From contig DIPH01000051.1 in the NCBI GenBank assembly GCA_002424045.1, forward strand, positions 65,858-129,857: a stretch of 64,000 nt of DNA, read 5' to 3'. Shown here one piece after another: positions 3,020 through 26,624 of the stretch. Below the pieces are notes generated by a model that saw nothing but the letters and a program-made list of their open reading frames with translations, was not told the origin of the DNA and ran no database searches. Within the stretch, counting starts at the first letter, position 1. Each line of letters opens with the position of its first letter. This DNA comes from Firmicutes bacterium UBA5493 (lineage in GTDB: Bacteria; Bacillota; Limnochordia; Darwinibacteriales; Darwinibacteriaceae). A program made the position numbers and the translations under genes.

Positions 3020-3448
3020 TTACATTCCTTGCAACGCATTCTCGATAGCCTTTTGCAGAGCCTTGGTAGTCACCGTAGCCCCGGAAATTCCTTGAATGTC
3101 TAGAGACTGCTTCTCTAGGATCTCCTGGATGACTTCCTCATTCCACTTTCCTACAACACTTTCATGATTACTCTTGGTGATGGTGATATCTTCAAGGATT
3201 CCAGAACTCACCTGTACCAAGACACTATAGGACCATCGATTTTGCGTGTAGCTACCCTCGTACGTGCCATCCGGAAGCGTGGCCACGTCAATGGAACCAA
3301 TGTTTAGAGCCAATACTTTATCCATTCCCTGGTTGAAGATAGTCAATCCGACCCACGCTACTAGTGCAATCCCCACAATAACGATGATAACGTTGCGTAA
3401 CCATTTAGGCAATCCGTCCACCCCTTTCTTAAAGCTGATCGACATCAT
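3020..3448 (-). CDS. FMN-binding domain protein (NqrC/RnfG-type FMN_bind fold) with N-terminal transmembrane anchor
   Basis: The protein has one TM helix (VIIVIVGIALVAWVGLTIF). The C-terminal GISGATVTTKALQKAIENAL carries the S(G)AT flavin-attachment motif of FMN_bind domains. Confidence 0.7.
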   Translation of the reverse strand: MMSISFKKGVDGLPKWLRNVIIVIVGIALVAWVGLTIFNQGMDKVLALNIGSIDVATLPDGTYEGSYTQNRWSYSVLVQVSSGILEDITITKSNHESVVGKWNEEVIQEILEKQSLDIQGISGATVTTKALQKAIENALQGM

Positions 3449-3725
3449 AATCTACACTGGAAAGCTCGGAATCAAAATACGCCAAGTCTCCTTCTGGCAT
3501 TTCCCAGATGCCTCGAAAGCGACTAGGCAGAACCATTCCGTCTTGCTCCCTTAATCCCACGACTTCTGCCCGCCAGAGAACCAGTTCGAAGATACCACTA
3601 CCCTTATCCATATAGCGGTCTGTGCTCCTAAAGGTTACACTCTCACAGTCGTCACTAACGGTAAAAATGCCCGTAGCTTCGGCTCCTTTGTACCGAATGG
3701 TTGCCTTCGCTTGATGCCCATCCAT
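3429..3725 (-). CDS. Hypothetical 98-aa protein, overlapping and likely co-transcribed with the FMN-binding protein gene
   Basis: The ORF has protein-like composition. Its 20-bp overlap with the downstream gene suggests translational coupling. The RBS is weak and close (AGGAAGag-ATG). I recognise no family. Confidence 0.4.
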   Translation of the reverse strand: MDGHQAKATIRYKGAEATGIFTVSDDCESVTFRSTDRYMDKGSGIFELVLWRAEVVGLREQDGMVLPSRFRGIWEMPEGDLAYFDSELSSVDYDVDQL

Positions 3726-3902
3726 CTCTTCCTAGGTAATATAGTCCTGTAGAGCATAACTTGGCACTACCAAGCATTCGGCTAAGATTGTCCTTCGAAG
3801 GGAACCACGCCGCCAATTTTGGCGATCATGTACGCAATGCGGGCCGGCTCCCGCACAAAGTTAAACTGCTCGCAGTACATTTTAAGGTCCATATTTCCGT
3901 TC

Positions 3903-4115
3903 TTAAAAAGCCACCTCATCATAGATGATCTTGACCGTCGACGTTTTTCGCTGCCCTACATAACCCAAGTGCCGAAAATACCGTTCTATGGGAGCTGGAA
4001 GACCGGCAAAATCCTCTGCAGTGAAAACCTCTGCAGAAAAAAACGTTGCCTTATCCGGTTCTTCCTGAACCTCAGAGGCAAAGAGCTTCTTCATCTGTAT
4101 CCCATCTCCCATCAT
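3903..4115 (-). CDS. Small hypothetical protein (about 70 aa), possibly the 5' part of a frameshifted gene
   Basis: The ATGATG start has a GAAGGG RBS. Sequence is MMGDGIQMKKLFASEVQEEPDKATFF... A further protein-like ORF (…MDLKMYCEQFNFVREPARIAYMIAKIGGVVPFEGQS) follows in a different frame at 3760-3880. Confidence 0.25.
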   Translation of the reverse strand: MMGDGIQMKKLFASEVQEEPDKATFFSAEVFTAEDFAGLPAPIERYFRHLGYVGQRKTSTVKIIYDEVAF

Positions 4116-4273
4116 GTAAACCCTTCTTCTCTTCACATCTTACTATGTGTTAGCGGAAGTGTGGCATAAATCCTGCAGAGGTCTGAAATCCCCTGCCGAT
4201 TAACAGGGATTCAAATATGGGTGCAGAAATGCTAAGTTCGACTAGACTATTCCCTCAAGAAGTGGAGGTTACA

Positions 4274-14631: not shown

Positions 14632-15108
14632 ATGCCAGATATGTTAGTCAAACTCTATGAGTTACCTAGGCTTGACCCGATCATGCAGGTGATGGAGGAG
14701 CGGGGTATTACAATTCGCCTGGGGCTGCCACCAGAAAAGCGCATAGTCGTGGATTGGATTCGGGAGCATTTTGGCGAACAATGGGCTAGCGAAGCGGATG
14801 TGGCCTTTACCAGTAAACCCAGTTCCATCTATTTAGCGGTAGACAACAAACCGGGACAGCTGGCGGGATTTGGTTGTTATGAAACGACCTGTAAGTCTTT
14901 CTTTGGCCCCACCGGAGTCCATCCCGATTACCGGGGAAGAGGAATCGGGAAAGCTTTGCTCTTAGCCTGCTTACATGGTTTGGCTCATCTGGGATACGCC
15001 TATGCTGTGATAGGTGGCGCTGGCCCCATGGAGTTTTATAGGAAGAGTGTGGGGGCCATAGAAATCCCTGACTCGGTACCCGGGGTTTACAAAGGTATGT
15101 TGCGATAA
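14632..15108 (+). CDS. GNAT-family N-acetyltransferase
   Basis: The acetyl-CoA binding motif HPDYRGRGIGKALL is present. The protein is about 160 aa. A palindromic hairpin follows the stop codon. Confidence 0.8.
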   Translation: MPDMLVKLYELPRLDPIMQVMEERGITIRLGLPPEKRIVVDWIREHFGEQWASEADVAFTSKPSSIYLAVDNKPGQLAGFGCYETTCKSFFGPTGVHPDYRGRGIGKALLLACLHGLAHLGYAYAVIGGAGPMEFYRKSVGAIEIPDSVPGVYKGMLR

Positions 15109-15365
15109 TGAGGGGCAGTCCCCTAATTAGGGAGGAATTCTGCTTAGTTTATAGAATTAGTAAAATATAACAAACACATAACAATATACTCCACTAGAAC
15201 ATCGAAGCCACGTTTGCAGAAATATGGCTTATTTTGCGTATCTGCGAAGATTTGCTGCTACTACTGTTGTCAGAATAGGCGAAAAAAAGCGAGCGGAGGT
15301 GATCCGAAAAGACGAAAAAACGGTGGGTTTGAAAGGCGGAACAACAAGAAGATGGAGGGATAGAC

Positions 15366-16625
15366 GTGAAAACGCTTAAATGGCTCAAAGCTGCTACTGT
15401 CTGTGCAGCGCTCATTTTGACACTAGGTACAATTGCCAGTGCCGCCATAGGCGGAGAGCTCGAAATCTTCTCTTGGTGGGCTGGAGATGAAGGTCCTGCC
15501 CTGGAAGCTCTAATCGAGCTATACGAATCCAAGTATCCGGAAGTCACAGTGATCAATGCAACTGTAACAGGCGGATCGGGAGTGAATGCCAAAGCTGTAC
15601 TGAAGACGAGAATGCTGGGCGGAGATCCGCCAGATGCGTTCCAAGTCCACGCTGGTCAGGAACTGATCGGCACCTGGGTTGTGGCACAAAGAATGGAAGA
15701 CCTAACCTGGCTTTTTGAAGAAGAGGGCTGGTTTGAAGTGTTTCCAGACGACTTATTTGATTTGCTCAGCACAGAAGAGGGAATCTGGTCAGTCCCTGTT
15801 AACATCCACCGCTCCAACGTTCTCTATTTCATACCAGAGAACCTTGAAAGATGGGGTGTGGAAGCTCCGAGCACATGGGATGAGTTTCTGGAAATTGCAC
15901 CAAAACTTATGAACCAGGGAGTCATCCCCATGTCTCTTGGTGAGAACTGGACAGCAACTCACCTTTGGGAAAGTGTGGCTTTGAGTGAGCTTGGTCCCGA
16001 TAAATATGGCGATTTGTGGAATGGTGAACTTTCCTGGACAAGTCCCGAGGTAGTTGGAGTATGGGAACTGTTTGGGGAAATCTTGGAGTACACCAATCCC
16101 GATGCTCCTTCCCTGTCGTGGCAGCAGGCCACCGATATGATCGTTGAAGGCCAGGCCGCCTTCAATATCATGGGAGACTGGGCCTCTGGTTATCTGTCTG
16201 TTACGCTCAATGTTCAGCCAGTAACCGGATATGGATGGGCAGCATCGCCAGGTACAGAAGGTATGTTCATGGCTTTATCCGACTCTTTCGGCTTGCCTGT
16301 GGGTAGCCCTAATCGGGACAATACCATAGCATGGCTGAAGACCATTGGCGGCCTTGATGGCCAAGATAGCTTTAATCCGCTCAAGGGTTCTATCAGCGCT
16401 AGAATTGACTCCGATCTAACCAAATACGATCTCTATCTGCAAAGTGCAGCCAGCGATTATCAAACCGGTCAGATTGTAGGGTCCTTAGCGCATGGAGTTG
16501 TCGCTAACGAAAGATTCATGAACGACTTTGCTACGGTAATGGACATATTCTTGGCAAACAAAGACGCCAGGGCAGCTGCCAACGCTGCACATATTGTGGC
16601 AATCCAAAGTGGAATGACGAAGTAA
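15366..16625 (+). CDS. ABC transporter substrate-binding protein, family 1 (carbohydrate)
   Basis: GTG start with GATGGAGGGA RBS. Signal peptide MKTLKWLKAATVCAALILTLGTIASA. The fold resembles MalE/UgpB. Confidence 0.85.
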   Translation: MKTLKWLKAATVCAALILTLGTIASAAIGGELEIFSWWAGDEGPALEALIELYESKYPEVTVINATVTGGSGVNAKAVLKTRMLGGDPPDAFQVHAGQELIGTWVVAQRMEDLTWLFEEEGWFEVFPDDLFDLLSTEEGIWSVPVNIHRSNVLYFIPENLERWGVEAPSTWDEFLEIAPKLMNQGVIPMSLGENWTATHLWESVALSELGPDKYGDLWNGELSWTSPEVVGVWELFGEILEYTNPDAPSLSWQQATDMIVEGQAAFNIMGDWASGYLSVTLNVQPVTGYGWAASPGTEGMFMALSDSFGLPVGSPNRDNTIAWLKTIGGLDGQDSFNPLKGSISARIDSDLTKYDLYLQSAASDYQTGQIVGSLAHGVVANERFMNDFATVMDIFLANKDARAAANAAHIVAIQSGMTK

Positions 16626-16731
16626 GCGAGAGGAACAAGGAGACAGCCCGTCACCCCTCGGTGGCGGGCTTATCGTGACGCCACACTTGGCGACAGTTAC
16701 CCTTCAATCTACGAGAAAGGACTGAAAGGAT

Positions 16732-17838
16732 ATGCGGTCACGCCGGGAACAGTTAATGGCGGCTCTCACCATCTTGCCATCCATTGCGTTATTAGGAATC
16801 TTTGTCTACGGGTTTATTGGGAACTCCATCCACATGTCAACAACCGATTGGGGTCAAGAAGCTGCCATGTCGCTGACCCCCAACATACAAAGCGTAGGGA
16901 TGGACAATTACCGCGACCTCTTCACTGGCTTTTTAAACGTTCGCTTTAGGCAAGACCTCGTAAACATGTTTTTCTTCACACTACTTTTCGTTGGCCTTTC
17001 CCTATTAATAGGGCTGTTTCTAGCCACCCTCATTGACCAGCTCATCTGGGGTGAGACATTTTTCCGCACAGTCTTTTTGTATCCCATGTCTCTTTCTATG
17101 GTGGTCACCGGAACCATTTGGCGCTGGATATTGCAACCCAGAGGAGGTATAAACATTTTGCCTACCTTAATTGGGCTTCCGCCAGGCGAGTTTCTGTGGC
17201 TATCCAGCAGAACCCAAACTTTGGTATTTGACTGGTCTCATATTTTTCATTATATCTGTCTAATACTGCTAATCGCGGTTGCTGTGAGCACCTATGGCCA
17301 ATGGCGCCGACGAGAAAACAAGAACCTCGCCCGTAAGCTGGTTCTCTGTGCTGTACTCATGGGCATTTTCCTCAGCGGTATCTTAACTCGTATCGGGCTT
17401 CTTAATTTCCCAGAGGCCCATGGCTTCAACGAAGCTCTGTGGGGCGTGGTGCTCGCCGCCGTCTGGCAGATGTCAGGTTATACTATGGCTCTGTACCTCG
17501 CGGGGCTACGCACCATACCCCATGAACTTCGCGAGGCTGCTAGGGTTGACGGAGGTAGCGAGTTTCAGATTTACAGGTATGTGGACCTGCCGCTACTCAA
17601 GCCCATTACGGCTAGCGCCATCGTGATCTTAGGACATATTGCGCTCAAAATCTTTGACCTTATCTTTGCGATCGCCGGACCTGATCACTATCCCACTTCA
17701 ATGCCTGCCATAACTATGTTTCTAAAAACATTTCGCGGTAACGAACTCGCAGTTGGGTCTGCTATAGGAGTTATCTTATTCTTGATAGTCTCGCTTTTGA
17801 TCGTCCCTTACTTAGTTGTTTCGTTCAGGGAGGAATGA
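16732..17838 (+). CDS. ABC transporter permease (MalF/UgpA-like, sugar)
   Basis: Six TM helices and the EAA loop ([27 protein letters not shown]). Confidence 0.85.
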
Positions 17839-17842
17839 CATC

Positions 17843-18664
17843 ATGAGATCTAGAGGAATCCTTGGTGTATCAGCACAAATCCTAGCAATTCTCCTGGCTA
17901 TTGTTTATTTAGTCCCTATCTACATGACGGTTGTTACGAGCCTCAAGGCACCTGGAGAGATCAGCTTGGTAAGTGCCTGGGAGCTACCATCCTCCATAAA
18001 CTGGGCAGGCTACGTAGTAGCTTGGGAGAGATTTGCCCCCAACCTAAGAAATAGTTTTGTGTTAGCAATTGGTGCCACGCTCATTTCCGCGATCATGGGC
18101 TCTTTAAACGGCTATGTGCTCAGTAAATATCGCTTTCCGGGCGCAAAGATTGTTATGCCACTCATTGTATTTGGCATGTTCATTCCCTACCAAAGTGTCT
18201 TGGTGCCCCTTTTCCGGTTTATGCAAAAAACGGGATTGTATGGGGGGCTACCGGGGCTGATCCTTGTCCACGTAGTCTATGGCCTACCCATAACCACCCT
18301 ACTATTTAGAAGTTTTTATCACGAAATACCCAATGAGCTCTTGGATGCCAGCAGTATAGATGGGGCTGGCTTCTTTGGGATATTCCGGTACTTGATTCTG
18401 CCCCTTTCTGGCCCACCCTTTCTAGTAGTCTGCATTTGGCAGTTCACCCAGATCTGGAATGAATTCCTCTTTGCTGTCACGCTAACTCGGCCCAGTTCAC
18501 AACCGATAACAGTGGCCCTGGCCAATCTCGCTGGCGGCCAAGCAGTCTCCTGGAATCTACCCATGGCCGGTTCGGTTCTGGCAGCTTTACCAACGACAAT
18601 CATCTACGTACTCTTGGGCCGTTACTTCGTGCGCGGCCTCTTGGCGGGGGCCTTAAAAGGCTAG
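17843..18664 (+). CDS. ABC transporter permease (MalG/UgpE-like, sugar)
   Basis: EAA loop [30 protein letters not shown] lies 8 nt upstream of the ATG at 17843. The ORF-track start at 17816 lies inside the preceding gene. Confidence 0.85.
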
Positions 18665-18687
18665 AGACATCTTAAGGGGACTGTTCT

Positions 18688-19326
18688 TCAAACACTGGCT
18701 TTAAGTTGTGCCTGAAGTCTTTCAAAGAACTCCATTTGGAAGGCAATCCGATCTTTCCACAGTTGGGTTCCAGTCTTCGTTGCAAACTCCATGTCCTTAT
18801 ACTTGTTCAACCTATCTAGAACATTGCCCACATATTCCGCCTGTTCTTCGTAGGGTAAGTCTGTAAATGACTTGTTCTTCAAAGTCTCATGAATTCTATA
18901 AACATCGAATCGGTCAATATTGTCGCAGTCGCCTATGCTCAAAGCCAAAGGCGAACGTTCACCAGGAAAATCGGCTTGGTCATCCACATGAATGGCGATC
19001 CCATAACAGATCGCATCGATTTGATCCTGGCGTAGATTCAAAGTTTCCAAGAAAGGCCTTGCCATCTTAGCAGCAGTCCTCCCATGGTTCAACCAGTCAT
19101 CCTCAGAGTCGAAGGTATCCACATAACTTAGATCGTGCAAAAGGCAACCTATAATCAAGGTTTCCTCTTCAAAACCCTCGCCCCTAGCAATCTCCTTGCC
19201 AATATTGGTGACCCTCATGGTATGTTCCAACCTGTATTTCTTATCCATGGGGTTTGCCGACATATACACACTTTGGTCGAATTGATGTTTAAGGAAGTCC
19301 AATGTACGCCTGATATTCTGTTCCAT
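18688..19326 (-). CDS. HD-domain phosphohydrolase
   Basis: H...HD motif (RLEHTMRV ... CLLHDLSY). RBS AAGGAGG. Confidence 0.8.
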   Translation of the reverse strand: MEQNIRRTLDFLKHQFDQSVYMSANPMDKKYRLEHTMRVTNIGKEIARGEGFEEETLIIGCLLHDLSYVDTFDSEDDWLNHGRTAAKMARPFLETLNLRQDQIDAICYGIAIHVDDQADFPGERSPLALSIGDCDNIDRFDVYRIHETLKNKSFTDLPYEEQAEYVGNVLDRLNKYKDMEFATKTGTQLWKDRIAFQMEFFERLQAQLKASV

Positions 19327-19353
19327 GGTGATGATTTTCCTCCTTGTAGTGCC

Positions 19354-19980
19354 TTACCAATCAATCTCCTCAGGATAATCTATGTCAAGCTCAACAAAAC
19401 TCGGCGAGCAATTATGAGCCTGTGCAGCCTCGTTTACCACTTCCCGATACTCCTGATACTCATCGCCCTTCTCTACGAGTCGTTTCACCATGATAGAGAT
19501 ATTCTTCACCCGTTTTTCCTTATCCAGGTCAAGAAATCTGGTATTAAGGACATCCAAGTACTGTGTCGTATAGTGTTCAAAGGAAACGTAGTATCCAAAC
19601 ATCATGTTTGTAATGCGACCTAGAACCGTTGGAGACACGGCTTGTTCAATGCACTTATACACTTCGGCCTGAAATAATCTCACCTGAGCCAAAGCTGAAT
19701 CCCAGGCCACATTTTTGTGCGTGAATGGAGCATAGTGGCTCTTAGAGAGTTTCTTGGCCCGAAGTTTGACAAAGCCATTGAGAACCATAGTGTAGAATAG
19801 CAACTCGGGCCATAGGACATTGGTACTTACGTAGACATTCTTATCAGGCGCGACAATGCCTAGCCAACGCCTACTGCATTCAGTAGTATTCGTTAGAAAG
19901 CAAGGGAATCCTGCCTTTGCGAAATTCGTCAAGTTGATTGGGGACTGTCCTGCGATCACCGCGATCAGAAAAAAGCGCAA
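19354..19980 (-). CDS. Hypothetical protein (208 aa); faint similarity to the C-terminal region of aminoglycoside 6-nucleotidyltransferase-like proteins
   Basis: Clean ORF, divergent from the nitroreductase gene. The similarity to ANT(6)-like proteins is weak and from memory only. Confidence 0.45.
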   Translation of the reverse strand: MRFFLIAVIAGQSPINLTNFAKAGFPCFLTNTTECSRRWLGIVAPDKNVYVSTNVLWPELLFYTMVLNGFVKLRAKKLSKSHYAPFTHKNVAWDSALAQVRLFQAEVYKCIEQAVSPTVLGRITNMMFGYYVSFEHYTTQYLDVLNTRFLDLDKEKRVKNISIMVKRLVEKGDEYQEYREVVNEAAQAHNCSPSFVELDIDYPEEIDW

Positions 19981-20037
19981 GAACGGACAAATGACTCCCC
20001 TTCCAGTGTATTATGATTGATTCAGAAAGGAGGAGTT

Positions 20038-20613
20038 ATGGTGGATACAGTTGAAATAATACGGTCCAGACGTAGCATCCGCCGCTTTAAATCCGACAAA
20101 ATCGGGCGGGACGTCATTGAAAAGCTCTTGGATCTGGCGACTCAAGCGCCGAGTGCCAAGAACGATCAGCCCTGGAAATTTGTGGTGGCCACGGGCAGAG
20201 CCAAAACATCCTTAGTGAACGTTCTTATGGAAGGCATGGAAAGGGCCGAGGCCCAAGGACTATCAACTGGGAGTATGCGGGTGAGTATTCGGGCTATGTC
20301 CGAGGCTCCTGTGGTTATCTTGGTCTTTAACCGTTTCGGACGTGAAAACCTCCCACAAGAGTACCAATACGCCAAATGCCTTGTAGATACTCAATCAATC
20401 GGAGCGGCTATTCAAACCTTCTTATTAGCAGCATGGGATGCGGGATTAGGAACACTTTGGATCTGCGATGTTCTTTACGCAAGAGACCAAGTCCAAGCCT
20501 TTGTCTCAACCAAGGAAGAACTGGTCGCGACCATCGCTCTGGGAGTTCCCTCGGAGTCACCGGGGAAGCGCCCAAGGGAAGACTTAAACGAACTTACCAC
20601 ATGGATGGACTAA
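20038..20613 (+). CDS. Nitroreductase-family protein (FMN-dependent NAD(P)H oxidoreductase)
   Basis: IRSRRSIRRFKSDKI ... nitroreductase fold. AAAGGAGGA RBS before the ATG at 20038. Confidence 0.85.
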   Translation: MVDTVEIIRSRRSIRRFKSDKIGRDVIEKLLDLATQAPSAKNDQPWKFVVATGRAKTSLVNVLMEGMERAEAQGLSTGSMRVSIRAMSEAPVVILVFNRFGRENLPQEYQYAKCLVDTQSIGAAIQTFLLAAWDAGLGTLWICDVLYARDQVQAFVSTKEELVATIALGVPSESPGKRPREDLNELTTWMD

Positions 20614-20638: not shown

Positions 20639-21187
20639 TTGAGCTACCTGAACCAAATTCAACACAGCTTAGACTATGTGGAAGGGCATCGTACCGAGCC
20701 CCTAACTGTCGAGGATCTGGCAAGTCAAATCGGCTTTTCCCCGTATCACTATTCTGAAAACGGCCAAAACGTTAGGGATATACCAAAATTCTGGGAAGAG
20801 TATCTAAGACTCGAGAAGGGCAAACACCTTCATTCCCAGCCCAATGTGGTGAGCGATGCCGAGTATGGAATTTGCTTTGATATGAGTATGGAAACAAACA
20901 GTTTCAACTACTATATCGGAGTAGAGGTTTCTGATTTTTCAGGTCTAGACCCCCAGTTCCAGACAACAGAAATACCGGCCGCAACATACGCCGTCTTTAC
21001 CACACCACCAACAGAGCGTTCCAAACTCAGCGATCAAATTCAGAGTACCTGGGCTTATATCTACAACGAATGGTTTCCTAATTCTGCCTATGAATTTGCG
21101 CAAGGTTGTGCTGACTTTGAGCTCTATGATGAACGCTGCCTAAGGGACACCGGTTGTGTGATGGAAATTTGGATCCCCATAGGATAG
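20639..21187 (+). CDS. AraC-N-terminus/GyrI-like effector-binding protein with an apparent internal deletion of the second half of the HTH domain
   Basis: The N-terminus MSYLNQIQHSLDYVEGHRTEPLTVEDLASQIGFSPYHY matches AraC/GyrI-like regulators (…IAGFSKYHFHRIF…) but runs directly into the GyrI-like domain (IPKFWEEY...). The protein is 182 aa versus about 290 aa typical. TTG start. Confidence 0.55.
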   Translation: MSYLNQIQHSLDYVEGHRTEPLTVEDLASQIGFSPYHYSENGQNVRDIPKFWEEYLRLEKGKHLHSQPNVVSDAEYGICFDMSMETNSFNYYIGVEVSDFSGLDPQFQTTEIPAATYAVFTTPPTERSKLSDQIQSTWAYIYNEWFPNSAYEFAQGCADFELYDERCLRDTGCVMEIWIPIG

Positions 21188-21313
21188 GGGACTGTCGGGG
21201 AATGTCCCGCGATTAACTTGCTCCATTCCATTCGTATCAACAAAGGCAAGAGCAGAAGCCATAAATAGCTCCAGCTCTTGCCTTTGAACATAGGGGACTA
21301 TCCCCTAAAGAAG

Positions 21314-21754
21314 CTAGAGGTTGGAATAATACTCTTCTGGACGCTGCAGCAGCTGGAGAATCCTCCACAACAGGGCCTTGTGCCCCTCTTCCTCCCGCTC
21401 AAGCATGAGAAAGACGTCCCTCTCCTGCTGGGATGTGGCTTTCCTAGCGAGTTCTCCAAACAAATCGATGGCCTTCTCCTCAAACTCTAGAGCCTGCTGG
21501 TAGATGGCGATGTAACTAGAGCTGTTCACAGGGGCATCAAAAATAGTCTCCACGCGATCGGTAACCCTACTTTCCCTAAAGTCATACACTCCAGAGTCTC
21601 TGATCTGTTTGAGGAGCTGGTAGTGCTTCTCTTCATCCTTCGCCAATCCTTCGAAAATCTCTCGGAATGCCGAGTCTTCCGTGACACTCGCCTGCTTTAG
21701 ATAGAACTCCTTGCCTTGTAGTTCTACCTCCATTGCATAATCTAACGGATGCAA
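21314..21754 (-). CDS. Rubrerythrin-like/ferritin-like diiron four-helix-bundle protein (no rubredoxin domain)
   Basis: Two E...EXXH pairs (EVELQGKEFY...DEEKHYQLL; EFEEKAIDLF...EREEEGHKALL). TTG start preferred because GAGGTGGA lies 4 nt upstream. It is the last gene of the Nqr-like operon. Confidence 0.6.
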   Translation of the reverse strand: MHPLDYAMEVELQGKEFYLKQASVTEDSAFREIFEGLAKDEEKHYQLLKQIRDSGVYDFRESRVTDRVETIFDAPVNSSSYIAIYQQALEFEEKAIDLFGELARKATSQQERDVFLMLEREEEGHKALLWRILQLLQRPEEYYSNL

Positions 21755-21764
21755 GACTTCCACC

Positions 21765-22229
21765 TCACTTTGGGTTTTTGATTTCTAGTACTTCAGCATA
21801 TTCGGCTGGGTCGACCCGAAAAGGAGCTCCATAACCCTCATAAAAACCATGACTGGCTATGAGATGGATGTTTAAATCCGACCATACCACCGTTTTCCCC
21901 GACTCCATGTTGGTCACCCGCGTAATGGACTTGGATGCTTGGACATTATCGGCAAACGGGCAGAGAATCCTGCCTTTATGTTCTTCTCGCTCAACTCTAA
22001 ACTTATGGTCCGCATTTTTTGGCCCAGGATTATCTGCTAGTTTGTCCGTAAAGTAGCGCATTCTGTCTGAAATATCTTGATTGGTCAAGCCTAATGGTTC
22101 CAGAAGAAGCTGATCATGGAGGATAACATCTGCAAGAGTACGGGTATCTGTCCCTAGAAACTGGTGGGCAGCCAATGGGCCCGAACGCATATTATCCTCA
22201 ATACGCTTAAAGTTTGGCCCTTGTTTCAT
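21765..22229 (-). CDS. Hypothetical 154-aa protein co-transcribed with the Nqr/Rnf-like complex
   Basis: Strong RBS AAAGGGGGA. It starts 13 nt after the NqrF-like stop. I recognise no family. Confidence 0.5.
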   Translation of the reverse strand: MKQGPNFKRIEDNMRSGPLAAHQFLGTDTRTLADVILHDQLLLEPLGLTNQDISDRMRYFTDKLADNPGPKNADHKFRVEREEHKGRILCPFADNVQASKSITRVTNMESGKTVVWSDLNIHLIASHGFYEGYGAPFRVDPAEYAEVLEIKNPK

Positions 22230-22242
22230 TTTTCATCCCCCT

Positions 22243-23340
22243 TTAGAATTCGTCGTAGAAAATGGCCTCTTTACCAAAGCCAATCTTGGTCAATACGTTG
22301 ACACAGGCATTGATCATTCCCGGACTTCCGCACAGATAGGCTTGCCTACCTACGGCATCAGGCACATGGCGAGCAACAACATCTGTGATCAGTCCTTCTT
22401 CTCCATCCCATTTATCTTCAGGAGTCGCTCCAGATAGGGCAGGTATGTACGTGAAGTTATCGTATTTTTCTTCTAGTTCACGGAAGAATTCCACATAGTA
22501 GAGATCCCTTGGTCGGACTGCACCGAAAAAGAATTTCATCTTTTTATCTAGCTTCTTCTCGAGAATATCCAAGACTAAAGAGCGAATGGGTGCTAGCCCT
22601 GATCCTCCCGCAATGAAGATGAGTTCGTCCCCGCCCTCATGCAAATAAAACTGACCAAAGGGGCCCGCAAAGGTGATCTCATCGCCTTCCTTGACATGAT
22701 TATGCATAAATGTGGTACAAATACCTCCCGGAACGAGTCGGATAATCAGCTCAATTATGTTTTTTTCCGATGGGACAGAGGAAACGGAATAGGCACGGCT
22801 CACCGCTTCAGTGACTTGGTCATAGGGTTTGCTATCGATTTGGACATATTGTCCCGCCTTGAAATCAATGGTCTGGGGCTCAATGAGTCTAAAACGAAAC
22901 TGTTTGATATCATGGGTGAGCTGCGTAATCTCCTCTACCCTGGAACGATACTGTTTTACATTAAAGAATTCCTCTGGAATCATGATCCTTAGGTCATGTT
23001 TCACCTTCAGCTGGCAAGCCAGGCGGACCCCACCTTCAATCTCTGCATCCGATAAGTAAGGTTCTTCCGTAGGAAGTACGGGACCTGCGCTCTCCGCTAG
23101 CGTCACCTTACACAGACCACAGGTCGCCTTTCCCCCACATGCAGAGGGAATAAAGACTCTGTGGCTTGCTAGACTGGATAGGAGGCTCGACCCTCCGTTG
23201 ACCTCTAGACGTTTAGTGCCATCATTGATGTCAATGGTACAAACGCCATAGTTATTGAGTTTATAATCTGCCAGGACTACCAGGCCTGCGAGGACTGTTG
23301 CTAGGACAGATAAGCTTAGAACTGTTAGCACAACTGACAT
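22243..23340 (-). CDS. nqrF: NqrF-like subunit: TM helix + 2Fe-2S ferredoxin + FAD/NAD(H)-binding ferredoxin-reductase domain
   Basis: N-terminal TM. 2Fe-2S motif SACGGKATCGLCKV...C. FAD motifs RAYSVSS and GGICTTFM. NAD motif IFIAGGSGLAPIRS. C-terminal YLCGSPGMI. The ATG at 23340 is preceded by GGAGTGAGG. Confidence 0.85.
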   Translation of the reverse strand: MSVVLTVLSLSVLATVLAGLVVLADYKLNNYGVCTIDINDGTKRLEVNGGSSLLSSLASHRVFIPSACGGKATCGLCKVTLAESAGPVLPTEEPYLSDAEIEGGVRLACQLKVKHDLRIMIPEEFFNVKQYRSRVEEITQLTHDIKQFRFRLIEPQTIDFKAGQYVQIDSKPYDQVTEAVSRAYSVSSVPSEKNIIELIIRLVPGGICTTFMHNHVKEGDEITFAGPFGQFYLHEGGDELIFIAGGSGLAPIRSLVLDILEKKLDKKMKFFFGAVRPRDLYYVEFFRELEEKYDNFTYIPALSGATPEDKWDGEEGLITDVVARHVPDAVGRQAYLCGSPGMINACVNVLTKIGFGKEAIFYDEF

Positions 23341-23389
23341 AGACCTCACTCCATTTCTATTCAGCAAGTTGCAGACATCGGAAACACCC

Positions 23390-23989
23390 CTACATCACCA
23401 CAAAAATCCCAGAAAAGCCCACAAATGCCAGAGCCATGATCCCTGTGATTATAAAGGTGATGGCCGGTCCGTCCAAGCCACGAGGAAGTTGATTTCCAGC
23501 CATTTTCTCGCGAATGGCGGCTAGAGCAGCAATCGCTAACCACCAGCCCAGTCCGCTTCCTAGGCCGAAGAGCAAGGTTTGCAAAAATCCATAGCTTCGA
23601 ATTACCATGAATAGACTGATACCCAAGATCGCACAATTCACAGTAATCAGAGGCAGGAAGATACCAAGTTTCATGTGTAAATCAGGTAAATAGCGATCCA
23701 TCACCATCTCGATGATCTGTACCGTGGCGGCAATGACTATAATGAAGATCAGGTAACGCAAGTAATCGAGTCCTAAGGGAATCATGATGAAGTGGTAAAT
23801 GAGCCAGTTGAGTGTGGTGGTGAACACCATAACCAGGGCCACAGCTTTTCCCAGACCAGATGCTGTTCTATATTCGGTGGATACAGAGATAAACGAGCAC
23901 ATCCCCAAGAAATTCGCCAGAACCATGTTGCTGGTAAAGATCGATGCAAGGAAAATCACTAAGGGGCTTATGGCTGGTGCATTACCCAT
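23390..23989 (-). CDS. NqrE/RnfA-family membrane subunit
   Basis: FTSNMVLANFLGMCSFISVS matches the NqrE/RnfA N-terminus. Six TM helices. RBS GGAGGTGG before the ATG at 23989. Confidence 0.85.
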   Translation of the reverse strand: MGNAPAISPLVIFLASIFTSNMVLANFLGMCSFISVSTEYRTASGLGKAVALVMVFTTTLNWLIYHFIMIPLGLDYLRYLIFIIVIAATVQIIEMVMDRYLPDLHMKLGIFLPLITVNCAILGISLFMVIRSYGFLQTLLFGLGSGLGWWLAIAALAAIREKMAGNQLPRGLDGPAITFIITGIMALAFVGFSGIFVVM

Positions 23990-24611
23990 TCTTACCACCT
24001 CCAACGGCTTGTTTACGAGCAACAATGTTATTCACAATCCAAATCATAACCCCCACAAGGAAAAACGCAGCCGGGGGCATTACCATAATTGTCCAGGTTT
24101 CCAGTCCGAGGAAATTGACATCATACCCGAAAATGGTTCCGAAACCCATGAGTTCCCGGATGAAGGCGATAATGACCAAAACGATGGTATAACCTAGTCC
24201 TGCAAAGACTCCGTCTAGAAAGGATTCAATTGGTGGGTTCATCTGGGCAAAAGCTTCGGCCCTTCCCATAATAATACAGTTGGTGATGATCAAGCCTATA
24301 TAGGGACCGAGGGCCCGGCTGACATCGGGAAGGGTAGCCTTGATAATGATATCAAAGAGGATTACCCAAGAAGCAATGATCAAGGTCTGGACAATCATCC
24401 GTACTCTATGGGGAATATAGTTCCTCAAAAGTGAGATCGTCAGACTGGAGAGAGCGACCGAAAAGATCAAGCCTGCACCCATCACCAGAGAATTGGAGAG
24501 TACGTTGGTGACAGCCAAGAGAGAGCAAATTCCGAGAATCTGACGTAAGACTTGGTTTTCATCCCATACATTACGCCTGAAAAGGGCCTTAAGCTCACCT
24601 TTTTTCATCAT
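23982..24611 (-). CDS. NqrD/RnfE-family membrane subunit
   Basis: LRQILGICSLLAVTN...IITNCIIMGRAEAF matches NqrD/RnfE. Confidence 0.85.
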   Translation of the reverse strand: MMKKGELKALFRRNVWDENQVLRQILGICSLLAVTNVLSNSLVMGAGLIFSVALSSLTISLLRNYIPHRVRMIVQTLIIASWVILFDIIIKATLPDVSRALGPYIGLIITNCIIMGRAEAFAQMNPPIESFLDGVFAGLGYTIVLVIIAFIRELMGFGTIFGYDVNFLGLETWTIMVMPPAAFFLVGVMIWIVNNIVARKQAVGGGKNG

Positions 24612-25189
24612 CTCGCCAGCACCTCCTTGAGTGGCATGAGTTCAGAAATTGTGTTATTGAGAATATTAAGGACAGCATTGGAACTACTCGTGGCTCCAGT
24701 AATGGCGTCAATTCCGCTTCCGTAGACCAGGTTTTCCCCTGGTATCAGTGGTACTCCTGCGAATTGCTCCTTGAACCAAGGTTCATCAATCCTACCTCCT
24801 AGACCAGGAGTCTCGTTTTGCTCAACAAACTCCATTCCAAGGAGACGATCAAAGGTGGCTGAAACACCAATATAACCTCGAATGGAACCCCATAGGCCTT
24901 GCCCATCGAGGGGAAATGCATAGCTTATGGGACTACCATCTTCATCATACACCGCAAAGGTTGACGACGTTCCAGCCGTAACCGGTGTCACTTGCCCTTC
25001 AAATGTAGTTACCAGATCGAACTCCGAGGTAATGCCGAGTACTTTTAGAATCGCTTGCCGCTCTACATTTGCCTCGTTTTCCGTAATCGTCGGGAGGTAG
25101 TAGGCTTGCGTCACGGCTAGTACAGTGGCAAAGACAGCCGTTAAAACAAATGTGAATGTTATGGTGTAGAGGTAGCTATCCTTTTTCAT
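24608..25189 (-). CDS. NqrC/RnfG-family FMN-binding subunit
   Basis: One TM helix. GQGLWGSIRGYIGV...EQNETPGLGGRI...SGIDAITGATSSSNAV carries the flavin-attachment motif. RBS AAGGAGGA before the ATG at 25189. Confidence 0.8.
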   Translation of the reverse strand: MKKDSYLYTITFTFVLTAVFATVLAVTQAYYLPTITENEANVERQAILKVLGITSEFDLVTTFEGQVTPVTAGTSSTFAVYDEDGSPISYAFPLDGQGLWGSIRGYIGVSATFDRLLGMEFVEQNETPGLGGRIDEPWFKEQFAGVPLIPGENLVYGSGIDAITGATSSSNAVLNILNNTISELMPLKEVLAR

Positions 25190-26126
25190 GGGCCATCCTC
25201 CTTTGAGCCGCAAATTCTTTGACCCTCATTTCAATTAAGGGTCCGAATGTATTCGCCAGGAGAATCGCGAACATCGCTCCCTCGCGAAATACGGAAAAAG
25301 TACGAATGGTCAGGGCCAAAAGTCCAACCAAAGCGCCAAAGAAGATCTGGGCTACCTTATTTCTTGGAGCTGAGATGGGGTCTGTGGCCATAAACACAAT
25401 CGCAAAGAGAAAACCCCCGGTTAGTAAGGATTCCAGTGGTGTTGATGGAAAGGCTCCAACTGCAGATAAAATGGTTCCCAAACCAAGAAAGGCTACGACG
25501 CCGGAGAGCATAATACGTATGGATGCTGTCTTGGTGTAGACCAGGTATACTGCTGCTAGTAGGATCAAAAGGGCGCTGATTTCACCGCTTGACCCGGGAA
25601 TCTGCCCTAAAAATAAGCGTGACAAATCTGTTCCTGTTTGGACAAGTGGAGTAGCCGCTGAGATGGCATCTACTCCTTGGCTATAGCGGAGTAGACCTCC
25701 TGGGAACCCGTTGAAGGGCGTAGCCCACGTTACTGTCATAGAGCTCGGAAAAGAGATGAACACAAAACACCGCCCCACCAAGGCTGGGTTAAAAATGTTC
25801 TTGCCGAAACCTCCAAAAACTCCTTTCCCAAATAGAACTCCAAAGGCAATGCCCACTACCGCCACCCACAAAGGAACGGTTGAGGGTAAAATCAGGGTAA
25901 ATAAGACGCAGGTGACAAAAATCGCTTCGGGAATCTTGAAGTCGGTACCACCCTTCATGAACCTCAAGATCAGATACTCCGTCAAGACACCGGCCGCTGT
26001 TACCACAGCTAAGATAAGTAGGACACGTAATCCAAATGAGTAGACTGCCCAGAGCAGGATGGGTACCAGGCTAATTAATACCCTCCTCATGATTGATTGT
26101 CGCATAAACAGTGCTCCCAGTTGCAT
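25176..26126 (-). CDS. RnfD/NqrB-family membrane subunit (RnfD-sized, about 317 aa)
   Basis: GKGVFGGFGKNIFNPALVGR and GVDAISAATPL are NqrB/RnfD signatures, the latter holding the covalent-FMN threonine. The start at 26126 has a GGAGGAGGA RBS. The size is closer to RnfD than to NqrB (about 410 aa). Confidence 0.8.
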   Translation of the reverse strand: MQLGALFMRQSIMRRVLISLVPILLWAVYSFGLRVLLILAVVTAAGVLTEYLILRFMKGGTDFKIPEAIFVTCVLFTLILPSTVPLWVAVVGIAFGVLFGKGVFGGFGKNIFNPALVGRCFVFISFPSSMTVTWATPFNGFPGGLLRYSQGVDAISAATPLVQTGTDLSRLFLGQIPGSSGEISALLILLAAVYLVYTKTASIRIMLSGVVAFLGLGTILSAVGAFPSTPLESLLTGGFLFAIVFMATDPISAPRNKVAQIFFGALVGLLALTIRTFSVFREGAMFAILLANTFGPLIEMRVKEFAAQRRMAHEKG

Positions 26127-26380: not shown

Positions 26381-26407
26381 CAAAAAAAGCACCTCCATTG
26401 GAGATGC
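26381..26407 (-). terminator. Rho-independent terminator of csp
   Basis: On the minus transcript an 8-bp stem (gcaucucc/ggaggugc, one G-U) is followed by UUUUUUUG. Confidence 0.6.
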
Positions 26408-26426
26408 TTTTTGTTTTACTTAAGAA

Positions 26427-26624
26427 TTATATGCGAGTTACGTTAGCTGCTTGAGGTCCGCGATCACCCTGGGTGATGTCGAATTCTACTTCTTGACCCT
26501 CATCCAAAGATTTGAAACCGTCTCCCTGAATTGCTGAGAAGTGAACAAAAACATCGTCGCCACCCTCACGCTCGATGAAACCGAATCCCTTGTCATTGTT
26601 AAACCATTTTACTCTTCCAACCAT
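26427..26624 (-). CDS. csp: Cold-shock protein, CspA family
   Basis: [48 protein letters not shown] contains the canonical RNP1/RNP2 motifs. RBS AAGGAGG. Confidence 0.95.

Follow-up and report, generated by a model that had tools for sequence, protein, structure and literature searches.

Only two members, Rnf and Na+-NQR, the sodium-pumping NADH:quinone reductase, are known of a unique class of redox-driven ion pumps, which is central to the bioenergetics of anaerobes and pathogens; structures are available for both. Here, a locus related to both systems is described in a stretch of 64,000 nucleotides (nt) from Firmicutes bacterium UBA5493 (contig DIPH01000051.1), which as a whole is referred to as the window. 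Homologues of NqrB, NqrC, NqrD, NqrE, and NqrF, in the following termed B, C, D, E, and F, are encoded there in this order and are followed by a conserved sixth gene, termed X. Judged by gene order and by trees, the family with the order B-C-D-E-F-X is widespread and a sister of Na+-NQR; it has no NqrA and is always accompanied by X.

NqrBCDEF clusters without NqrA were reported for Thermotoga thermarum and Pseudothermotoga lettingae in 2014 (PMC4148951), for Clostridium ultunense and Alkaliphilus metalliredigens in 2018 (PMC5924567), and for Ca. Izimaplasma ZiA1 (PMC6256511). The window shares with these clusters of anaerobes the five-gene order, the NqrF-type subunit, and the lack of nqrA, and the authors of these papers also leave the second substrate open. 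In contrast to the locus presented here, the papers list five genes and no sixth one, the clusters being known here from those descriptions alone; in case of the published Thermotogota clusters, a family member from that phylum, Fervidobacterium thailandense (locus L071), has the complete order B-C-D-E-F-X. The “NQR/RNF-like” systems of Meheust et al. 2021, found mainly in Actinobacteria and the Candidate Phyla Radiation (CPR), likewise join a membrane domain of the NqrB/RnfD type to an NAD-binding domain of the NqrF type and lack A and C, but they are single B::NqrF-domain fusion proteins with one transmembrane path (PMC8238504), whereas the window encodes each of B, C, D, E, and F as a complete protein of its own. 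Reviews of NQR/RNF evolution and mechanism (PMC4014512, PMC12174285) discuss no such NqrA-less complexes, and a full-text search of open-access papers and bioRxiv, with subscription journals uncovered, returned passing remarks in genome papers only, and neither a characterised NqrA-less NQR nor a named third clade. The five-gene layout without NqrA is already on record, and what appears to be new is the obligatory X with its novel fold, the breadth of the family, and its position as a sister clade.

Core subunits and phylogenetic position

A preceding reading of the bare sequence (the sequence-only reading) had recognised five minus-strand genes at 22243-26126 and an entry module of the NqrF type. 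Both were borne out, the former by the listing of open reading frames (ORFs) and by Pfam and NCBIfam scans, which revealed tightly packed core genes on one strand, and the latter by the three domains of F and its alignment to V. cholerae NqrF. The genes of the locus, with protein lengths in amino acids (aa), are:

25176-26126, minus strand: B, NqrB/RnfD family, 316 aa, Pfam PF03116 at 9.5e-84
24608-25189, minus strand: C, NqrC/RnfG family, 193 aa, Pfam FMN_bind at 8.4e-15
23982-24611, minus strand: D, NqrD/RnfE family, 209 aa, Pfam Rnf-Nqr
23390-23989, minus strand: E, NqrE/RnfA family, 199 aa, Pfam Rnf-Nqr
22243-23340, minus strand: F, NqrF-type NADH dehydrogenase subunit, 365 aa, Pfam Fer2, FAD_binding_6, and NAD_binding_1
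21765-22229, minus strand: X, conserved sixth gene, 154 aa, soluble, outside known families and folds

The length of F is counted from the start codon that its homologues use, which are likewise 365 aa long. As had been read from the sequence, NqrA, RnfC, and RnfB are missing: references of these proteins and of ApbE and NqrM gave no match in the 64-kb window (tblastn, all E > 0.5; NqrA E > 2), and a CxxCxxCxxxC (4Fe-4S) motif was found in none of its ORFs.

With the NCBIfam models, each of the five core proteins scores between NQR and RNF, and all five stay under the NQR equivalog cut-offs. In case of B, 225 bits were obtained for NqrB (cut-off 414) and 217 bits for rnfD (cut-off 207), which together with RsxE (184.4 bits, cut-off 184) is the only Rnf cut-off reached. 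C scores 85 bits with the NQR model (cut-off 144) and 69 bits with rnfG (cut-off 102), D 232.7 bits with NqrD (cut-off 235) and 165 bits with rnfE (cut-off 213), E 223 bits with nqrE (cut-off 247.5) and 210 bits with rnfA (cut-off 229), and F 287 bits with TIGR01941 (cut-off 295).

The core subunits were furthermore aligned to the solved V. cholerae NQR and to three RNF structures (7zc6, 9eri, 8ahx). As far as these alignments indicate, all cofactor ligands of the NQR/RNF core are conserved in the five subunits. The threonine for attachment of flavin mononucleotide (FMN) in B, situated in VDAISAATPL, aligns with the known NqrB site. The sequence-only reading had regarded GVDAISAATPL as an RnfD-like flavin site, but the NqrB proteins of Klebsiella and Bacteroides also read ATPL. 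C consists of an N-terminal membrane anchor and an FMN-binding domain, and its SGAT-type threonine in GIDAITGATSSSN (DAITGAT) is part of a motif that aligns to GVDGLSGATLTSN (T225) of V. cholerae NqrC. Both covalent-FMN threonines, for which a check by alignment had been proposed, are thus present. Both cluster-binding Cys residues are kept in D (LGICS and ITNCI; C29 and C112 in V. cholerae numbering) and in E (LGMCSF and TVNCAI; C26 and C120). F comprises a membrane anchor, a 2Fe-2S ferredoxin domain (SACGGKATCGLC...LACQ), a site for flavin adenine dinucleotide (FAD; RAYS), and an NAD-binding domain, and in the alignment with V. cholerae NqrF all four 2Fe-2S Cys residues as well as RAYS are matched. 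Among acidic residues, a role in Na+ transport is attributed to D346 and D397 of NqrB, E119 and D133 of NqrD, and E95 of NqrE (PMC7414866). All are kept (D346 in MATDP of B, E95 in QIIEM of E) except for D397, which is replaced by Glu.

B aligns to residues 132-411 of V. cholerae NqrB. The stretch before the FNPAL block comprises 102-112 residues across the family (111 in B of the window, counted from the annotated start), compared to 120-125 in RnfD and 173-201 in NqrB. B is without approximately 70-90 N-terminal residues of NqrB, and its RnfD-like size had been stated correctly before. For D, the alignment to V. cholerae NqrD reaches 179 bits versus 111-128 bits for the three RnfE chains, and for E the alignment to V. 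cholerae NqrE reaches 182 bits versus 156-166 bits for the three RnfA chains.

The order of B, C, D, E, and F, the NqrF-type entry with its 2Fe-2S, FAD, and NADH sites, the covalent-FMN threonines of B and C, the four Cys residues of D and E, and the acidic ion-path residues are all shared with Na+-NQR. Apart from the lack of NqrA and of the N-terminal extension of NqrB, the family differs from Na+-NQR in a C subunit that is approximately 60-90 aa and an F subunit that is approximately 40 aa shorter than in the reference NQR operons, and in the additional, conserved X. In the canonical nqr operons fetched here, nqrF is followed by the maturation genes apbE and nqrM, and neither gene is present in the window or in the family loci. 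With Rnf, the family shares the membrane core made of D, G, E, and A homologues and a B of RnfD size that passes the rnfD cut-off. It differs from Rnf in the absence of RnfC and RnfB from the window and from the regions adjoining the family loci, as well as in its phylogenetic position. Due to the NqrF-type entry module, the substrate on the entry side would be NADH and not ferredoxin as in Rnf.

Neighbour-joining trees (200 bootstraps) were calculated with 5 canonical nqr and 7 rnf operons from annotated records as references. Since D and E are paralogous, a joint D/E tree roots each subtree. In the D and E subtrees, the B-C-D-E-F-X family is monophyletic with 81% and 76% and canonical NQR with 69% and 90%, respectively; both form a joint clade (98% and 99%) with RNF outside, so that Na+-NQR is the nearest relative. 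Three clades were obtained in the B tree (family 94.5%, NQR 100%, RNF 100%), and in the F tree the family is cleanly apart from canonical NqrF. According to these trees, the family is a distinct sister lineage of Na+-NQR. It is thus neither a hybrid of Rnf core subunits and an Nqr head, the architecture that the sequence-only reading had suggested, nor an ordinary NQR whose nqrA went astray, as the family forms separate clades in the D/E, B, and F trees and does not fall inside ordinary NQR clades.

A short B gene with an RnfD-type annotation (258 aa; 3428-4204 of locus L094) was also observed on plasmid pOM-1 of Nitratireductor sp. OM-1, within an nqrA-F/apbE/nqrM operon that is canonical in other respects. 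Against B of the window, this B reaches only 26 bits, and apbE is split into two ORFs; this operon may be a decaying or divergent variant.

Distribution of the six-gene order and protein X

The operon region of the window is identical to the 231-kb metagenome contig L001, and its closest relatives are metagenome-assembled genomes (MAGs) of Limnochordia/Bacillota. The same layout was found in L001 and approximately 150 other loci. Together with the earlier genome papers, these loci show that the layout, rightly described as A-less in the sequence-only reading, is not unique.

One genome per species was scanned with two peptide patterns derived from an alignment of the NqrF-like family, which yielded at least 577 confirmed stretches. 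In the best 80 of these loci, ORFs were called and searched with the window proteins, and the order B-C-D-E-F-X was observed in every locus with sufficient contig reach (approximately 70 genome loci). The hosts belong to at least seven phyla, including the Bacillota (Limnochordia-like, Clostridia, Christensenellales, Oscillospiraceae, and Peptostreptococcaceae), Spirochaetota (Sphaerochaeta, Marispirochaeta, Pleomorphochaeta, and Leptospirales), Thermotogota (complete genome of F. thailandense), KSB1, Lentisphaerota (Victivallales), Planctomycetota, and Verrucomicrobiota. The cultured Ilyobacter polytropus DSM 2926 (Fusobacteriota) carries the same six genes (ILYOP_RS10220 to RS10195), with X annotated as hypothetical protein. 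Conversely, in a metagenome search seeded with X, an NqrF-like gene is located directly upstream of 75 out of 76 X genes with enough upstream sequence. The linkage of F and X is obligatory.

Beyond B or X, flank clustering and a Pfam tally of the downstream genes gave heterogeneous families and no conserved partner; the gene 3' of X is often situated on the opposite strand, and the upstream genes vary by locus. Due to this lack of conservation on both sides, the functional unit is taken to extend from B to X. None of nqrA, rnfC, rnfB, apbE, and nqrM adjoins the approximately 75 family loci (flanks up to 10 kb).

Two paralogous NqrF-like genes of the family occur on separate contigs in a Fastidiosipila MAG (L033/L042) and in a Clostridium sp. 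MAG (L059/L063). In F. thailandense, a stand-alone 95-aa protein (14545-14832 of L071) resembles the membrane anchor and the Cys-rich domain of RnfB only, with 45% identity to residues 4-90 of E. coli RsxB. Its gene lies approximately 3 kb downstream of X with unrelated genes in between and is not conserved in other loci.

X of the window belongs to the X family, with approximately 150 aa, the invariant residues of the family, and a position immediately 3' of the NqrF-type gene. No match to X was found in Pfam or NCBIfam, its predicted structure (predicted local distance difference test, pLDDT, 93) has no fold match in PDB, and a profile search against PDB was empty. In a profile search of 1.84 billion cluster representatives (50%-identity clusters), 1,837 relatives were obtained at E<=1e-3, nearly all of which are stand-alone proteins of approximately 150 aa. 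Among 74 operon-linked copies, G26, D39, G86, P91, K100, H122, F129, G132, R138, and P141 are invariant, and K2, D28, R30, and H127 are near-invariant. The sole conserved Cys, C90, is replaced by Ser in 15 of the 74 copies, which makes an obligatory Cys-ligated centre in X unlikely and weakens the assumption of a Cys-His metal site. A remnant of NqrA or RnfC was ruled out, since hhalign against the NqrA/RnfC alignment gave a probability of 0.6%. Neither a membrane segment nor a signal peptide is read from the sequence of X, which is hence regarded as cytoplasmic.

Several large proteins without a Pfam domain, namely P0175 (885 aa), P0241 (2506 aa), P0304 (945 aa), P0252 (385 aa), P0319, P0323, and P0309, furthermore contain X-like domains, either as tandem arrays of two to four copies or C-terminally. 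In P0175, SPF takes the place of the CPF motif, and the N-terminus resembles a signal peptide.

Several soluble redox proteins are associated with X. In the window, X is followed by a gene for an erythrin/rubrerythrin-like protein of the four-helix-bundle type, in which the diiron ligand pattern E...ExxH...E...ExxH is visible. The erythrin-like gene is located 3' of X in 6 genome loci of the Limnochordia type and in 14 out of 80 metagenome loci and is a lineage-specific seventh member of the operon. In locus L182, X is fused to erythrin directly 3' of F, and in L183 a fusion of X to nitroreductase (NTR) occupies the position of the sixth gene in the order D-E-F-X::NTR. These in-operon fusions, which are rare, suggest a soluble, oxidant-reducing partner. 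A rubredoxin gene is the next gene after X in the planctomycete locus L079 and is at most approximately 3 kb away in L066 and L086; as rubredoxin genes occur within 10 kb in only 5 of approximately 75 loci, this linkage to the operon is suggestive, not conclusive. In the KSB1 locus L056, a ferritin gene is situated 3' of X, which, like the rubredoxin genes, is a weak link to the chemistry of oxidants or iron.

A nitroreductase gene is also found approximately 2 kb from the Ilyobacter cluster (10890-11507 of L088); considering the cases of the window and of L183, this may be a weak functional link or a coincidence. In the Clostridia locus L005, NuoE/NuoF/[FeFe]-hydrogenase sets of the electron-bifurcating type are located on both sides of the operon within 10 kb (640-2410 and 14744-18849).

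Operon boundaries and neighbouring genes

The features that flank the six genes in the window are:

26427-26624, minus strand: csp, cold-shock gene, upstream neighbour, co-directional with the operon
26384-26412, minus strand: strong intrinsic terminator of csp, 13-bp stem followed by a T-run
21314-21754, minus strand: erythrin/rubrerythrin-like gene, 146 aa, Pfam Rubrerythrin at 1.3e-9
21245-21282, minus strand: possible terminator 3' of the erythrin-like gene, stem GGCAAGAGC/GCTCTTGCC with a 20-nt loop, followed by TTTGTTG

The sequence-only reading had assumed csp to be convergent with the cluster, but it lies on the same strand and ends with its own terminator, which sets the 5' boundary of the operon. 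A spacer of approximately 250 nt separates this terminator from the ribosome-binding site GAGGAGGAGG, which is located 5' of the ATG of B at 26126. With csp as upstream neighbour and with upstream genes that vary between loci, the operon is not preceded by an nqrA or by an rnfC plus rnfB on the same transcript. At the 3' side, the extent of five genes ending at 22243 proved too short and left out X, the most telling feature of the locus: only 13 nt, which hold the ribosome-binding site of X, separate the stop codon of F from the start of X, and only 10 nt lie between the stop codon of X and the start of the erythrin-like gene that follows in this lineage. The possible terminator at 21245-21282 was read directly from the sequence, as it remained uncalled by the terminator scan due to its loop of more than 8 nt.

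A nitroreductase-family gene (20017-20613, plus strand) and a GyrI-like/Cass2 effector-binding gene (20639-21187, plus strand) are convergent with the operon at its 3' end. Farther downstream, genes for an HD-domain and a DUF6904 protein form a co-directional pair (18688-19980, minus strand), which is also kept in the identical metagenome contigs L001-L003.

Electron path and exit side

The conserved ligand set implies an electron path of the NQR type, and the conserved ion-path residues imply translocation of Na+ or H+. NADH would be oxidised at the FAD of the membrane-anchored NqrF-type subunit, and the electrons would pass via the 2Fe-2S cluster of F to an intramembrane Fe-S centre on the four Cys residues of D and E and from there to the covalent FMN of C at the outer face. 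The way back to the cytoplasmic face would lead over the covalent FMN of B, presumably also over riboflavin in B, and this return would drive the export of Na+ or H+ as in NQR. The exit is formed by quinone with NqrA in NQR and by RnfC with NAD+ in Rnf; here, X may be a dedicated subunit or adaptor of the cytoplasmic exit side. It may dock on B and, as adaptor or as site of the acceptor, serve a soluble partner whose potential is higher than that of NADH, and not a quinone. In the window organism, this partner would probably be the co-transcribed erythrin-type diiron protein, with reduction of peroxide or oxygen, and in other lineages it could be a nitroreductase-family flavoprotein, rubredoxin, or a protein encoded elsewhere. 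Gene linkage and fusions suggest such a handover of electrons via X. Gene content, the conserved cofactor ligands, the F-X linkage, and the position in the trees are direct results, whereas we infer that X belongs to the complex, in which direction electrons flow, that ions are pumped, and what accepts the electrons. The sequence-only reading had left the redox partner open, with which we agree. Overall, we see an even chance that the family represents a third class of Rnf/Nqr-type, NADH-driven ion pumps, whose exit side is served by X and whose acceptor is soluble and above the potential of NADH.

Several points weigh against this proposal. X is without a Cys/His cofactor motif and may hold no redox centre, and thus could be purely structural or an assembly factor. 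The links to erythrin, rubredoxin, ferritin, and nitroreductase are restricted to a minority of loci, in part within single lineages. Finally, in the NQR structures now available the quinone is located in NqrB and not in NqrA (review PMC12174285), so that the loss of NqrA alone leaves quinone reduction possible. A streamlined Na+-NQR, in which NADH reduces menaquinone at B, NqrA is dispensable, and X is a small structural replacement, would agree with the sister position of the family, with the scores of D, E, and F near the NQR equivalog cut-offs, and with the description of NqrA as cofactor-free, electrons reaching the quinone in the membrane (PMC12174285). It is nevertheless unlikely, as the N-terminal extension of NqrB is missing from B and the fusions of X to nitroreductase and erythrin point to soluble partners. 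This extension helps to form the quinone/inhibitor pocket in the V. cholerae structures and contacts NqrA, and many of the host lineages (Thermotogota, Sphaerochaeta, Christensenellales, and Ilyobacter) are fermenters that are not known to contain quinones. If X were a maturation or assembly factor similar to NqrM or ApbE, the five-subunit complex would pass electrons to the acceptor by itself. The positions of apbE and nqrM after nqrF in canonical operons and their absence from the family loci would fit, as would the lack of a redox motif in X and the replaceability of C90 by Ser. We consider this quite improbable, since X is unrelated to NqrM and ApbE, matches no family, and is devoid of a readable membrane segment, its N-terminus and a number of charged positions do not vary between phyla, and in two lineages it is fused to terminal redox enzymes, which would be unusual if it served assembly.

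Electrons of NADH might also leave the complex at the extracytosolic FMN of C towards an external acceptor, e.g., a metal, a flavin, or a reductase outside the cytosol, similar to proposals for other flavinylated systems. Systems of this extracytosolic, flavinylated kind occur widely (PMC8238504), and the metal reducer A. metalliredigens possesses an NqrA-less cluster (PMC5924567). However, the FMN threonine and the ion-path residues of B are kept in all members, which favours the complete U-shaped route back into the cytoplasm; X, as read from its sequence, is a cytoplasmic protein, and no extracytosolic partner is conserved near the loci, so that such an export is very improbable. Operation in the reverse direction, in which an ion gradient drives electrons of NADH uphill to a ferredoxin or flavodoxin bound via X, comparable to Rnf in reverse, would suit the many hosts that are ferredoxin-dependent fermenters and the electron-bifurcating hydrogenase genes near some loci, e.g., L005. 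Against it, NqrF takes the entry position of RnfB (PMC12174285), which puts the input of NADH at the end of low potential, with B, in NQR as in RNF, as the exit of high potential, and described hosts already own a normal Rnf (PMC4148951, PMC5924567); it is hardly probable at all.

Going further than a third pump class with X at its exit side, though we regard this as doubtful, the pump may couple the oxidation of NADH to soluble high-potential acceptors in quinone-free fermentative anaerobes, with X as exit adaptor and the family as the missing stage between Rnf and Na+-NQR. Peroxide or oxygen would be reduced via erythrin or rubredoxin, and nitro and quinone-like compounds via nitroreductase-family enzymes. 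If this is true, the detoxification of oxidants would conserve energy as a sodium or proton gradient, and the family would be an intermediate in which NqrF was already acquired and B was still RnfD-like.

A different exit module would imply that abundant fermenters oxidise NADH in a respiratory or detoxifying activity that has escaped notice, among them Limnochordia and Clostridia of anaerobic digesters, Christensenellales of the gut, Sphaerochaeta, and Thermotogota. X represents a protein family without a fold relative that is tied to a defined complex. Since cultured hosts exist (Ilyobacter polytropus DSM 2926, Fervidobacterium thailandense, and Pseudothermotoga species), the question is directly testable. 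The family also bears on the origin of NQR from Rnf, in that NqrF may have been acquired before the extension of NqrB arose, and NqrA or RnfC may have been lost or never fixed in this lineage.

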